From NCBI GenBank assembly GCA_965200125.1, contig OZ241332.1, positions 2,830,438 to 2,894,437 of the forward strand: DNA of 64,000 nucleotides. Direction: 5' to 3'. The notes under the pieces were generated by a model. It saw only the letters and a list, made by a program, of their open reading frames with translations. It made no database searches and was not told where the DNA came from. Below are positions 13,279-20,195 of this stretch, in pieces; positions within the stretch are counted from its first letter, which is position 1, and every line of letters starts with the position of its first letter. Position numbers and translations under genes: made by a program. Source of the DNA: an uncultured Candidatus Binatia bacterium. Lineage in GTDB: Bacteria > Desulfobacterota > Binatia > Bin18.

Positions 13279-14094
13279 TCATTGCGCCCATGCCGGGCGG
13301 CGGCGCACGAATTCGCTCACCACGTCCACGGTCGTCTGCGCCAGCTCGACGTTGAACAGGTGGCTCGCGTTGGACAGCATCAGCAGGTCCGCGTTGGGAA
13401 TCCGTTCGGCCAGAGCCACTGAATTCTCCGGCGGCACGAGGCCGTCCCGTGTGCCGGTGACGACCAGCGTGGGCTGCCGGATCTGTGGCAATCTGTCGTA
13501 CGTGTCGTGCCCCTGAATGGCCGCCATTTGATTGACCATGCCATGTTTCGGGGTGGGATGCAGCGCGGACAGACGATTGAGTTCCAGCAAGGTGTCCATG
13601 TGCTTCTGCATGAACCAGGGCGTCACCGCGACCTTGGTCATCGCCAGCGCCGCCTGCTCGACCTCGAAGGCGGCGATGTTGCCGAGCATCTCGACGACCT
13701 CCGGGTCACGCGACAGCACCGCCGTCTCCCCGCCGCAGTTCGTGCAGCCCAACACCAGGCTTTTCACCCGGTCGGGATGGCGCAACGCGAACTCCTGAGC
13801 GATCATGCCGCCCATCGAAATGCCGAACACGTGGGCCTGTTCGATACCCAACCCGTCCAGGACGCCGGCCGTGTCGTCGGCGAACATGGGCATCGAGTAC
13901 GGCTCGTCGGGTTTGTCGCTCTGTCCTACGCCGCGGTTGTCGAACGCGATGGTACGGAACGACTCGGCAAAGCCCGGAACGTTCCAGTGCCAACCCACCA
14001 TGCTGACCGTGAAGCCCATGATCAGCAGGAGCGGCTCGCCGCTGCCGTGTTCTTCGTAGTAGAGCTTGACACCGTTGGATTCGAGATGCGGCAT
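13279..14094 (-). CDS. Alpha/beta hydrolase fold protein.
   Basis: GISMGG nucleophile elbow and HGSGEPLLLIMGF motif. AAAGGAGA RBS before the ATG at 14094. Confidence 0.8.
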   Translation of the reverse strand: MPHLESNGVKLYYEEHGSGEPLLLIMGFTVSMVGWHWNVPGFAESFRTIAFDNRGVGQSDKPDEPYSMPMFADDTAGVLDGLGIEQAHVFGISMGGMIAQEFALRHPDRVKSLVLGCTNCGGETAVLSRDPEVVEMLGNIAAFEVEQAALAMTKVAVTPWFMQKHMDTLLELNRLSALHPTPKHGMVNQMAAIQGHDTYDRLPQIRQPTLVVTGTRDGLVPPENSVALAERIPNADLLMLSNASHLFNVELAQTTVDVVSEFVRRRPAWAQ

Positions 14095-14274
14095 GATTGG
14101 CGGTCTCCTTTGGGTTCGAGGCCGAGTCGGTAAGCATACCCTACGCCCGGACACCGAGTCCGCCGTGCCTCGAACTTGGTCCCTGAACTTGCGGTGGCCT
14201 GAGCTTTCCGAGGGGTCGAAGGGTGCCGGAAAGTCGAGGATCGTCGTGGAGGCGGACCGGCCTCGTCCTCCACT

Positions 14275-14547
14275 TCAATCAATGTACGGGCTGAAATTGC
14301 GCATGGCTGACAGCAAGGCGTGCAGGTCGGCGTATTCGTTCAGTTCGGCATAGAGAAAATCGTACTGGCCGCGAACTTCGTCCTCGTCCTGCTCGTCCGC
14401 GGGCCGGGCGAACAGGGACTCGAACTCCTTCAACATCGCCTGGGACTGCAACTTGGTCTCGACCGGGATTTCGTCGTCCGTGGCGATCAACAGCTTCATC
14501 TGCCGAACCAGCCGGATCACCATTTCCTCGTCGCTTCGATCCGGCAT
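14275..14547 (-). CDS. Hypothetical acidic protein.
   Basis: ORF with the expected codon bias. No recognisable domain. Confidence 0.35.
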   Translation of the reverse strand: MPDRSDEEMVIRLVRQMKLLIATDDEIPVETKLQSQAMLKEFESLFARPADEQDEDEVRGQYDFLYAELNEYADLHALLSAMRNFSPYID

Positions 14548-14571
14548 GATCGTCCACCCCGGCGCGTGGCC

Positions 14572-14934
14572 CTACCCGTTCTCCCCCGGATTTTCCGTCG
14601 ATTTCCGTTCCTGCAACTGGCGCTTCCAGTCGAGCATACGCGCCTTGGCCGCGACCGCCTCGGCCTCGGGGACCATGCCCTTCTGCTGGTAGAGGCGGGA
14701 CAACACCGTAAAGCTCATCTCGTCGTCCGGGCTGAGTTCCGTCAGCTTCTTCGCCATTTCAATCGCGTCGTCGAGTTGTTCGGCGTCGGCATAGGCGTGC
14801 GCCAAGTCGTGCACTGCCTCGACATGATTCGGATCGATCTCGAGAATCGCCTTGTATGTCGCAATCGCCCGATCGGTCTCGCCGTCGCACAGAAAGTCGT
14901 ACGCCTCGTCGTACATTTCGTCGATGGATGGCAT
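14572..14934 (-). CDS. Tetratricopeptide repeat protein.
   Basis: TPR-like helices (AIATYKAILEIDPNHVEAVHDLAHAYA). GGAGGA RBS before the ATG at 14934. Confidence 0.55.
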   Translation of the reverse strand: MPSIDEMYDEAYDFLCDGETDRAIATYKAILEIDPNHVEAVHDLAHAYADAEQLDDAIEMAKKLTELSPDDEMSFTVLSRLYQQKGMVPEAEAVAAKARMLDWKRQLQERKSTENPGENG

Positions 14935-17686: not shown

Positions 17687-17705
17687 GGAGGGGGGTCCTC
17701 CGCAT
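17650..17705. repeat. GC-rich palindromic motif ccctcccccttTgagggggagggttagggagggggg. A related copy lies at 59722-59780.
   Basis: Read directly. About 40-bp shared core. Confidence 0.4.
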
Positions 17706-17803
17706 ACCAGAAGACCGACAAGACGACAGAGACCCCTCTCCTTCTCTCCGCCTCCCCTCCACCGGAGAGGGAGACAACGCGAGAGGGTTCAGGACGGAGC
17801 ATA

Positions 17804-18895
17804 CTAGACCGGCGGAATCCACCCCAACGCCTGGTAGCGGGCGATCAGATTGCGGAACATGTCCTCGGTATCCAGGCAGTCGTGAAACCCGGCCTGTCGG
17901 ATTTTGACGGTGCTGACCAGGATCGGCGGCGGCTCGCTCTCTGCACCGTACGCGAACGTGAAGTCGGTCAACTCGAACGAGCCGCCCACGAAGTCCAGCA
18001 TCCGCCGCGGGGAGCGCAGCCCGTATTTGTCCACGATCGCCCCCCATTCGGCGTCGCGCGTGGGCATTTCACGCGTCAGGCAACACGGCTCCGGCGGACC
18101 GACTTCCATGCCCAGCGCGTCGGCGATCACCGGCCAGACGTGCTGCCAGACGAACACGTCCCCGTTGGTGAGGTTGAACGTCTGGTGCGCGGCGTCGGGG
18201 CTGGTGGCGGCCCAGGCCAAGGCGCGTGCCTGCAGGTCGGCGTCCACCGCCTCGAACACGGGCGCCGGACCGCCGGGAAACGACAGCGGCAGGCCGGCTT
18301 CCTTGCGCAGCGCGGCATACACGCAGATCGCGGGCAGCACGTTGAGGTTGCCCTTGAGCGCTTCGCCGAAGACGAGTTGCGGGCGAAAGATGGTCCAGCC
18401 CCAGTCTTTGCCGTGCTGGCGGTCGCGCAGATAGTCTTCTTGCAGCCAGTAGAAATTTTCGTGCGGGTGTCGCGGCCAGCGCTCGCGGGCCGGAACCGGG
18501 AACGGCTCGATGTGGGCGCCATACGCCTTGGTGCCCTGCAGCAGCGAGATGTGTCGGAGGCCGCGGGCCGCCACGGCGAGCGGCTCGAACAGATTGTCGA
18601 GCATCCGCAGATTGGTCTCCATCTGGTCGCGCTCGCGCCAGCCCTGCACCACACCGGGCTTTTCGTACAGCGCGGCGTACACCAGATGGGTGACGTCGTG
18701 CATCCGGCCGAAGACTTCCGCACAACGCGCCCGGTCCTGCAGATCGACCGATACGAGGTCGGCGCCGTCAAGCCCGTCCGGGATGCGGCGCGAGACGCCC
18801 ACCACGTCCCAATCGGCCAAGCCGGCGAAATGTCGGACCGCGGCGAAACCCACCAAGCCGGACGCGCCGGCGACCAGCACTTTGTATTTCGGCAT
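17804..18895 (-). CDS. NAD-dependent epimerase/dehydratase (extended SDR) family protein.
   Basis: Rossmann motif VLVAGASGLVG. GGAGGAGGGG RBS before the ATG at 18895. Confidence 0.75.
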   Translation of the reverse strand: MPKYKVLVAGASGLVGFAAVRHFAGLADWDVVGVSRRIPDGLDGADLVSVDLQDRARCAEVFGRMHDVTHLVYAALYEKPGVVQGWRERDQMETNLRMLDNLFEPLAVAARGLRHISLLQGTKAYGAHIEPFPVPARERWPRHPHENFYWLQEDYLRDRQHGKDWGWTIFRPQLVFGEALKGNLNVLPAICVYAALRKEAGLPLSFPGGPAPVFEAVDADLQARALAWAATSPDAAHQTFNLTNGDVFVWQHVWPVIADALGMEVGPPEPCCLTREMPTRDAEWGAIVDKYGLRSPRRMLDFVGGSFELTDFTFAYGAESEPPPILVSTVKIRQAGFHDCLDTEDMFRNLIARYQALGWIPPV

Positions 18896-18986
18896 GCTCC
18901 CCTCCTCCGCCTTCGATGCGGCGCACGCTACCAAGCCGGGAGGCACGGTCAAGCCGGATTTCTTGCCGGTCCGGGCGGCCTCGCGT

Positions 18987-20195
18987 ATGTTCGCCGTCAT
19001 GTCCGCGTTGCGCGCCGATTTTCTCCGCTACGTCGCCCAGACCTCCGCGGAACCGATGGGGATCGAGGTCGCCCGGTCGCACGGCTGCACGGTCGTGGCC
19101 CGCGACGGCAAGGAATATCTCGACCTGCTGTCCGGCATCGGCGTGTGCGGAATCGGCCACACCCATCCCGCGGTCGTGGCCGCGGTCACGGCGCAGGCCG
19201 GGCGCTATCTGCACGCGATGGTGTACGGCGAATACGTCCAGGAGCCGCAGGTCGCCCTGGCACGCAAGCTGGCACAGATCGCACCGGGTGATTTGTCGGT
19301 GACCTATTTCACGAATAGCGGGACGGAGGCAGTCGAGGGCGCGCTCAAGACGGCACGCAAATACACCGGCCGGCCGGGGCTGGTGGGATTTGCGGGCAGC
19401 TTCCACGGCGACACCTTCGGCGCGGTGTCGGTCGGGGGCAACCCCGTGTACCGGCGTCCGTTCGCGCCGTTGCTGCCGGACGTGACGTTGCTGCCGTTCA
19501 ACGATCCCGCCACGCTGGAACGGATCGACGCGTCGGTCGCTGCGGTGATCGTCGAACCGATTCAGGCCGAAGCCGGCGTGCGCATCCCGGACGACGGCTT
19601 TCTGCCCGGGCTGCGCCGGCGCTGTTCCGAGGTCGGCGCGCTACTCGTGTTCGACGAGGTGGTGACCGGCTTCGGGCGAACCGGCGCGCCGTTCGCGTGC
19701 GAACACTGGGACGCGACGCCCGACTTGTTGGTCGTCGCCAAGGCGTTGGGGGGCGGCATGCCGCTCGGCGGATTCGTCGGCACCCCGCGCGTCATGGACA
19801 CGTTGTCGCACGACCCGCCGCTGGCCCACGTGACCACCTTCGGCGGGCATCCGGTGTGTTGTGCCGCGGGGCTCGCCGCGTTGGACGTGCTCGTCGGGCA
19901 GGATTTAGTCCGAGCCGCGTACGACAAAGGGGCGGCATTCCTGGCGCAACTCGACGGACTGGTCGGCACGGGCGGATGCACCGCAGTGCGAGGCCGCGGC
20001 CTGCTCATCGGCATGGAGTTCGACTCGCCCCGCCGCACGCAGCACTTCGTCCAAGGCTGCTTCGCCCAGGGGCTGATCGTGGGCTGGACGTTGCACGACG
20101 ACTGCGTGGTGCGCTTGGCGCCGCCGATGGTCATATCCGCAGCGGAGATGGACCGCGCGGTCTCGACCATGCAGCAGGTGCTGACGCGGGGCTGA
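18987..20195 (+). CDS. Class-III (PLP-dependent) aminotransferase.
   Basis: Motifs GIGVCGIGH, FDEVVTGFGRTG and LLVVAKALGGGMPLG (PLP Lys). Divergent from the SDR gene. Confidence 0.85.
   Translation: MFAVMSALRADFLRYVAQTSAEPMGIEVARSHGCTVVARDGKEYLDLLSGIGVCGIGHTHPAVVAAVTAQAGRYLHAMVYGEYVQEPQVALARKLAQIAPGDLSVTYFTNSGTEAVEGALKTARKYTGRPGLVGFAGSFHGDTFGAVSVGGNPVYRRPFAPLLPDVTLLPFNDPATLERIDASVAAVIVEPIQAEAGVRIPDDGFLPGLRRRCSEVGALLVFDEVVTGFGRTGAPFACEHWDATPDLLVVAKALGGGMPLGGFVGTPRVMDTLSHDPPLAHVTTFGGHPVCCAAGLAALDVLVGQDLVRAAYDKGAAFLAQLDGLVGTGGCTAVRGRGLLIGMEFDSPRRTQHFVQGCFAQGLIVGWTLHDDCVVRLAPPMVISAAEMDRAVSTMQQVLTRG

Follow-up and report, generated by a model that had tools for sequence, protein, structure and literature searches.

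LuxE-like and LuxC-like proteins with an aminotransferase as a predicted QueC/QueF-free route to the queuosine precursor preQ1 in Binatia and other bacteria

Introduction

The LuxC-LuxE fatty acid reductase of Photobacterium phosphoreum (PDB 7XC6; PMC9157457) consists of an ANL-type synthetase with an acyl-bearing C-terminal cysteine and an aldehyde dehydrogenase-like reductase with a catalytic cysteine. A gene pair with the same two-protein architecture was found in a stretch of 64,000 nucleotides, called the window in the following, from an uncultured Candidatus Binatia bacterium (GenBank assembly GCA_965200125.1, contig OZ241332.1, positions 2,830,438 to 2,894,437). The Photobacterium proteins are, however, only remote homologs (53 and 37 bits), and the NCBIfam equivalog cut-offs are missed by far. 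The pair in the window occurs without luxA, luxB and luxD and is linked instead to an aminotransferase (AT) gene and, in other phyla, to queuosine genes. While the Photobacterium enzyme acts on myristate, an aromatic heterocyclic acid is proposed here as the substrate. We consider it likely that the LuxE-like protein, the LuxC-like protein and AT, together termed the trio, convert 7-carboxy-7-deazaguanine (CDG) to preQ1 without QueC and QueF.

The second system of relevance is the FolE-QueD-QueE-QueC-QueF route, which is treated as settled and universal for de novo queuosine makers; a 2024 paper still lists QueD, QueE, QueC and QueF as needed for preQ1 (PMC11130926). Since the route is held to be universal, genomes with Tgt and without QueC and QueF are routinely scored as salvagers. 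A full-text search of the literature yielded no paper in which LuxC or LuxE is connected with queuosine or in which QueC and QueF are bypassed. With a little more reserve than for the conversion itself, we propose that the trio represents an undescribed, widespread three-enzyme route from CDG via 7-formyl-7-deazaguanine to preQ1 and would take the place of QueC and QueF in most Binatia, in about half of the sampled Verrucomicrobiae and in members of the Methylomirabilota and Nitrospirota. We infer the substrate and the products from the enzyme families, catalytic residues, gene linkage and phyletic pattern described below.

Results

Family membership and catalytic residues of the LuxE-like and LuxC-like proteins

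The genes of central interest are the following.

15077-16162, plus strand: LuxE-like adenylate-forming acyl-protein synthetase, 361 aa (PF04443, 43 bits)
16319-17686, within the open reading frame (ORF) 16163-17686, plus strand: LuxC-like thioester reductase, 455 aa (PF05893, 269 bits)
17804-18895, minus strand: epimerase/PRISE-type short-chain dehydrogenase/reductase (SDR; PF01370, 43 bits; PF22917, 41 bits)
18987-20195, plus strand: class-III pyridoxal phosphate (PLP)-dependent aminotransferase AT, 402 aa, ArgD paralog (PF00202, 340 bits)

A first-pass annotation of the window had described adjacent, co-oriented luxE-like and luxC-like genes followed by a divergent SDR/AT pair, and this arrangement was borne out by Pfam and NCBIfam profiles. 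The SDR gene is convergent with luxC, and 91 bp lie between the divergent SDR and AT genes. As start of luxC the ATG at 16319 was picked from the lengths of homologs (431-457 aa in the databases versus 455 aa for the resulting protein).

Both proteins were found within their Pfam families, with cut-offs of 24.9 bits for PF04443 and 21 bits for PF05893. The LuxE-like protein possesses the ANL motifs and a C-terminal cysteine. Its TSGTT and YGMTE motifs and the cysteine of the C-terminal RGC (C350) are invariant across 12 orthologs, and the RGC aligns to the C-terminus of LuxE in 7XC6. The LuxC-like protein carries its catalytic cysteine in the sequence DQ.GCLSPQ; this cysteine aligns with the LuxC motif of 7XC6 and is invariant in 16 orthologs. 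The LuxC and LuxE chains of the 7XC6 complex were the sole PDB relatives of the two proteins. Neither protein scored as a true lux protein. The LuxC-like protein reached 75.7 bits with NF052251 (cut-off 750 bits) and stands outside any lux operon context, and the LuxE-like protein reached 48 bits with NF052244 (cut-off 550 bits). NCBIfam holds no specific model for the trio proteins, and homologs are named "acyl-CoA reductase" or "hypothetical protein" in the databases.

LuxE, LuxC and AT as a conserved unit

A scan of one genome per species yielded at least 585 relatives of LuxC. Neighbourhoods were read in the 80 best loci, and recurrent neighbours were found by clustering all ORFs of related loci. 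Among these 80 loci the gene order was luxE-luxC-AT in Binatia and Nitrospirota and AT-luxE-luxC in Methylomirabilota and some Verrucomicrobiota, and the neighbourhood was found conserved in Binatia, Nitrospirota, Methylomirabilota and part of the Verrucomicrobiota. In eight genomes of other Binatia orders and families the SDR gene is absent and luxC and AT are directly adjacent and co-oriented, with luxE adjacent in seven of the eight. In one Binatia family, here called f8, both enzymes are encoded by a single ORF of 930 aa, in which LuxC occupies residues 110-507 and Aminotran_3 residues 550-929 (L029:8047-10839, minus strand); the same continuity of the reading frame was observed in genome G031. 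A word-based protein search for longer fused forms gave one unrelated match only. Structure prediction of a LuxC-AT complex gave a score of 0.00, which lies under the mark and counts neither for nor against binding. The functional link of LuxE and LuxC with an aminotransferase, already suggested by the first-pass annotation, is thus supported by conserved adjacency and by the LuxC-AT fusion. As judged from these loci, LuxE, LuxC and AT are a conserved unit.

The SDR gene behaved differently. In 10 of the 12 loci of the genus we found the order alpha/beta hydrolase, small ORF, TPR protein, luxE-luxC, SDR (minus strand) and AT. One member of the genus (G013) carries AT about 10 kb away from luxC after a rearrangement. 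In another (G022, locus L018) only a 57-bit remnant of the SDR gene is left, with luxE, luxC and AT intact. All 66 loci from outside the genus lack the SDR gene. The protein matched no NCBIfam family, and the gene is equipped with a GGAGG-type ribosome-binding site and a putative hairpin/T-run terminator of its own, the latter over the stop region of luxC. The conservation of the LuxE-LuxC-SDR-AT neighbourhood, which had been asked for at first pass, was consequently seen across phyla for LuxE, LuxC and AT, and failed for SDR, which is restricted to the genus and decayed in G022. We judge from this distribution that SDR is a lineage-specific insertion, unrelated to the trio, and its earlier inclusion as a pathway member was abandoned: it lies between luxC and AT in the genus only and has decayed in one member.

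Queuosine genes beside the trio in other phyla

Three enzymes of queuosine biosynthesis were found as neighbours of the trio, each with a score above its NCBIfam equivalog cut-off. In 14 Verrucomicrobiota-type loci luxC has the gene for the 6-carboxytetrahydropterin synthase QueD (TIGR03367, 107 bits versus 89) as a neighbour, and queD follows luxC immediately and in the same orientation in 13 of these. The gene for the 7-carboxy-7-deazaguanine synthase QueE (TIGR04349, 306 and 315 bits versus 300) adjoins the trio in eight loci, one of which stems from Methylomirabilota. The gene for the epoxyqueuosine reductase QueG (TIGR00276, 385 bits versus 200) is located directly 5' of AT-luxE-luxC in seven Methylomirabilota-type loci. 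QueE makes CDG, a carboxylic acid, and Tgt uses preQ1 (7-aminomethyl-7-deazaguanine), the matching aminomethyl compound, which fits the chemistry of LuxE and LuxC followed by AT.

In eight Verrucomicrobiota-type loci the order luxE-MFS-luxC was observed (e.g., L099:4661-5953), and seven of these loci have queD next. Transport of queuosine precursors has been reported for MFS proteins (PMC11130926). Five metagenome bins (L045, L048, L053, L056 and L094) with Binatia-like or Verrucomicrobiota-like loci bear titles such as "Enterobacteriaceae", "Klebsiella pneumoniae" or "Bifidobacterium", and judged by these loci their organism labels look unreliable.

The gap in the queuosine pathway of the genome

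The genome consists of one contig of 4.13 Mb and is 100% complete; as it is closed, the absence of a gene is meaningful. The queuosine enzymes found in it are listed below.

FolE: present (TIGR00063, 248 bits)
QueD: G000:C1:1273476-1274294, tandem two-domain 6-pyruvoyltetrahydropterin synthase (PTPS) in one ORF (TIGR03367, 130 bits versus 89)
QueE: present (TIGR04508, 356 bits versus 240)
Tgt: present (TIGR00430, 479 bits versus 307)
QueA: present, adjacent to tgt (431 bits)
QueG: present (tblastn, 296 bits)

The 7-cyano-7-deazaguanine synthase QueC and the preQ0 reductase QueF are missing from this list. The best QueC score in the genome was 21 bits, confined to the N-terminal PP-loop of large ORFs, and the best QueF score was 19.8 bits, obtained with the ORF of FolE. 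A tblastn search in six frames with QueC and QueF of two other Binatia found nothing in the genome (best E 0.14), so that not even a pseudogene is left. QueE is kept throughout the genus. That QueE is retained in the absence of QueC, the only enzyme known to consume CDG, speaks against a lifestyle based on salvage alone. The tandem two-domain form of QueD is conserved across the genus as well. A second, single-domain PTPS of 169 aa is encoded at C1:1918364-1918801.

Complementary distribution of the trio and QueC/QueF

The 41 genomes of Binatia were compared for both gene sets. LuxC was found in 39, LuxE in 38 and an ortholog of AT (52-90% identity) in 38 of them, and Tgt in 40. Only two genomes, G027 and G035 of one family (100% and 96% complete), are devoid of LuxE, LuxC and AT altogether. 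The same two are the only ones among the 41 with strong QueC (258 and 255 bits) and QueF (123 bits).

For Verrucomicrobiae a sample of 121 genomes, each at least 90% complete, was used with a LuxC threshold of at least 120 bits. LuxC was present in 64 genomes and QueF in 49, none contained both, and eight contained neither. Strong QueC was found in all 49 genomes with QueF and in one more, G157. An ortholog of AT accompanied LuxC in 51 genomes, was also found in G145 and was present in none of the genomes with QueF. The AT gene frequently resides on another contig than luxC, and the pattern holds even for unlinked genes. Fisher's test on the two-by-two table of LuxC and QueF gave a p-value of 8e-26, with related genomes treated as independent. 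The gap-filling and the complementary distribution expected from a member of the queuosine gene set were thus both found (39 versus 2 genomes in Binatia, 64 versus 49 in Verrucomicrobiae, overlap 0). Single trio-bearing genomes of Methylomirabilota, Nitrospirota and Verrucomicrobiota were without QueF, too.

Weak QueC-like matches of 74-130 bits were obtained for some trio-bearing genomes. One of them, a gene of 115 bits in G012 of the same genus, lies in L131:3668-6444 together with genes for a SLATT effector, a TGT-like protein, an Ogg-type glycosylase, a ThsB-type TIR protein and a PIN protein. Going by these neighbours, its context is a defence island and not queuosine biosynthesis. Similar QueC/TGT/OGG accessory genes occur in type IV cyclic oligonucleotide-based antiphage signaling systems (CBASS).

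AT in comparison with ArgD

AT belongs to the class-III aminotransferases, of which the genome holds five. It keeps D223/E224 of the DE..TG motif and the PLP lysine K252, and in the alignment K252 and D223 were invariant. The closest named subfamily is ArgD/acetylornithine aminotransferase, with the same fold and PLP residues. With the ArgD model TIGR00707 AT reached 350 bits, under the cut-off of 410 bits and outside the subfamily; with a PigE model it scored 290 bits. The housekeeping ArgD of the genome, to which AT is 37% identical, scored 497 bits and is encoded in an argB-argD-argF-argG-argH operon at 1.851-1.857 Mb. An ornithine/acetylornithine-type enzyme would have spoken against the first-pass annotation on its own account; the 350 bits under the cut-off and the separate ArgD in its operon argue against such an assignment. 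An identity of AT with ArgD, or a role of LuxE and LuxC in place of ArgB and ArgC, was considered and rejected, as a full arg operon and two semialdehyde-dehydrogenase genes are present.

The queE-linked AT of Verrucomicrobiota (L101:3525-4628, L107:2402-3508) contains a glycine at the position of the arginine in VVRLAPP, which is common to AT of Binatia and Methylomirabilota and to ArgD proteins. The Verrucomicrobiota AT may represent a separate recruitment or may use another amino donor, and recruitment of an aminotransferase may have happened repeatedly.

Further features of the window

The remaining features which were considered are the following.

13279-14154, minus strand: alpha/beta hydrolase (Pfam/NCBIfam)
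14275-14547, minus strand: hypothetical protein, 90 aa, acidic (no Pfam or NCBIfam family)
about 14572-14934, minus strand: TPR protein, 120 aa (Pfam/NCBIfam)
15039..15067, plus strand: sigma-70-like promoter match TTGACA-17-TATGCT (consensus scan, 10/12 positions; pattern match only)
17660..17682 (palindrome region 17655-17700), minus strand: GC-rich hairpin with T-run, terminator-like for the SDR gene (terminator scan and reading of the sequence)
5627-6670, plus strand: luciferase-like monooxygenase (PF00296, 208 bits), 8.4 kb upstream of luxE
35988-37070: luciferase-like monooxygenase, 18 kb downstream

The alpha/beta hydrolase and the TPR protein had been correctly placed upstream of luxE at first pass, and the lack of adjoining luxAB was confirmed: among the genes of the window, no luxA, luxB or luxD is adjacent to the luxE-luxC pair. 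The distance of 18 kb given for the nearest luciferase-like gene had to be corrected, as the PF00296 gene at 5627-6670 is closer. Neither of the two luciferase-like monooxygenases is luxAB-like by context.

The -10 element of the promoter-like sequence ends 10 nt before the GTG start of luxE; at this distance the mRNA would be leaderless or nearly so, if the promoter match is real. The palindrome of the terminator-like element also encodes the final 10 to 16 codons or so of luxC, and the homology to other LuxC proteins stops before it.

The 90-aa hypothetical protein was mainly found in Binatota in the ESM Atlas. Within the genus and in an order-level relative (L026/L055) its gene adjoins luxE; in family f8 it directly precedes luxE in the same orientation (L029:11799-12065). 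Apart from the probable source sample, the sequencing runs which contain at least half of the words sampled from window positions 14900-20300 are sponge metagenomes with near-identical DNA, which suggests sponge-associated Binatia as the source lineage. No RNA run was among the runs listed, which speaks neither for nor against expression.

Discussion

Proposed conversion of CDG to preQ1

According to our proposal, the LuxE-like enzyme would adenylate the carboxylate of CDG and then bind the acyl group as a thioester to its C-terminal cysteine. The acyl group would then pass to the catalytic cysteine of the LuxC-like enzyme and be reduced with NAD(P)H to 7-formyl-7-deazaguanine. AT would transfer an amino group, probably from glutamate, onto the aldehyde and thereby form preQ1, and Tgt, QueA and QueG, encoded elsewhere in the genome, would finish queuosine on the tRNA. 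It is the clustering with que genes together with the exclusion of QueC and QueF which points to CDG as the acid and preQ1 as the amine. The canonical way from CDG to preQ1 takes two ATP-dependent steps and two NADPH. For the proposed one, a single ATP, a single NAD(P)H and one amino donor would suffice. The predicted intermediate, 7-formyl-7-deazaguanine, is a known stable compound, which is released when QueF variants hydrolyse the imine intermediate (PMC13740343).

Several observations weigh against this proposal. The genome encodes the queuosine-precursor transporter QPTR/YhhQ (TIGR00697, 159 bits), so that QueC and QueF may have been lost because preQ1 is salvaged. In E. coli, which served as control, QPTR was found alongside the de novo pathway. 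There is no que gene within the window, and a preQ1 riboswitch was found neither in window positions 12-21 kb nor in the 12 orthologous loci. In the window AT is separated from luxC by the convergent SDR gene and is hence not co-transcribed with luxE-luxC. We are also aware of the fact that related genomes are not independent samples and that the count of independent switches is what matters for the distribution. G157 combines LuxC (197 bits) and AT with strong QueC (186 bits), without QueF. AT of Verrucomicrobiota is 38% identical to AT of the window, about as distant as ArgD, and its orthology is therefore uncertain. Finally, a well-supported LuxC subclade, with its LuxE and without AT or que neighbours, was found in Chloroflexota, WOR-3/Stahlbacteria, Paenibacillus, Rubrobacter and Arthrobacter. 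The Paenibacillus genome with LuxE and LuxC of this subclade also carries QueC and QueF, which means that the LuxE/LuxC family is not tied to queuosine everywhere. On the basis of this comparison, the branch containing Paenibacillus probably does something else. The gene downstream of luxE-luxC in Arthrobacter, Paenibacillus and one WOR-3 genome is not AT but codes for a classical adh_short SDR (L084, L088, L089, L100, L070; about 7240-8320). This arrangement may encode an acid-to-aldehyde-to-alcohol variant.

Alternative explanations

We regard it as unlikely that the trio aminates another carboxylate, for example an unrelated metabolite or a pterin or deazapurine acid distinct from CDG, and that preQ1 is salvaged via QPTR. 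The transporter is indeed present, the substrate is not readable from sequence, and a LuxE/LuxC subclade coexists with QueC and QueF in Paenibacillus. QueD likewise forms a carboxylic acid, and its gene is the one found beside luxC in 14 loci. However, CDG-specific QueE is kept in the genome and in the genus with QueC, the only known consumer of CDG, missing. QueE and QueG adjoin the trio in other phyla, and two unrelated lineages show a complete or almost complete exclusion of QueC and QueF. E. coli, too, has QPTR as well as the de novo pathway.

The first-pass annotation had favored a fatty-amine pathway, in which LuxE and LuxC reduce a fatty acid to the fatty aldehyde and AT makes a fatty amine or an amino-lipid precursor from it. 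Membership of the proteins in the LuxE and LuxC Pfam families agrees with such a function, and the combination of a reductase with an omega-transaminase has a precedent in TabE/TabA of tambjamine BE-18591 (bioRxiv 10.1101/2025.08.11.669332). Nevertheless, we consider it very unlikely, as the scores lie far under the LuxC and LuxE equivalog cut-offs (76 versus 750 bits and 48 versus 550 bits), no acyl-transferase (LuxD), acyl carrier protein (ACP) or lipid gene is conserved nearby, and the queD, queE and queG neighbours and the exclusion of QueC and QueF would be left unexplained. The acid-to-aldehyde-to-amine logic of that pathway was retained, while its fatty-acid substrate was given up in view of the que clustering and the exclusion of QueC and QueF. 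Least probable of all appears a single pathway of four genes, in which SDR acts on the aldehyde or on a sugar-nucleotide partner. Its position between luxC and AT in 10 of the 12 genus loci could be read in this way, but the gene lies on the opposite strand with its own ribosome-binding site and terminator, does not occur at any locus beyond the genus, luxC and AT being contiguous or fused there, and has decayed in L018 next to an intact trio.

Implications of the proposed QueC/QueF-free route

If the conversion of CDG to preQ1 by LuxE, LuxC and AT holds true, large environmental lineages would have to be reclassified as queuosine producers, and models of how microbial communities exchange queuosine precursors would need revision. 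A 7-deazapurine amine would be formed without a nitrile intermediate, and queuosine made without preQ0. The trio would moreover provide a natural carboxylate reductase plus transaminase for a purine-like acid, which would be usable as a biocatalyst. Thousands of entries named "acyl-CoA reductase", "hypothetical protein" or "acetylornithine aminotransferase" could then be named correctly. The present genome contributes a closed assembly and the contrast, within one class, of the QueC/QueF family with all other families. The joint absence of LuxE, LuxC and AT in the QueC/QueF family, the LuxC-AT fusion and the recognition of SDR as an insertion are further contributions.

Comparison with known systems

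The same logic of acid or thioester to aldehyde to amine with a class-III aminotransferase is known from TabE/TabA and TamH of tambjamine biosynthesis and from PigE of prodigiosin biosynthesis. Those enzymes are encoded in secondary-metabolite clusters of sporadic occurrence, and their substrates are ACP-bound fatty acyl chains. In contrast, the genes of the trio are conserved core genes of whole classes and are tied to tRNA modification. The canonical pair of QueC and QueF has the same start and end compounds as the route proposed for the trio, and the mutually exclusive distribution of both gene sets is the signature of a non-orthologous displacement. Folds and chemistry of the two systems are unrelated. 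The canonical enzymes proceed via an amide and the nitrile preQ0, followed by a four-electron reduction, whereas LuxE, LuxC and AT would proceed via a thioester, an aldehyde and a transamination and, unlike QueC, would yield no preQ0.

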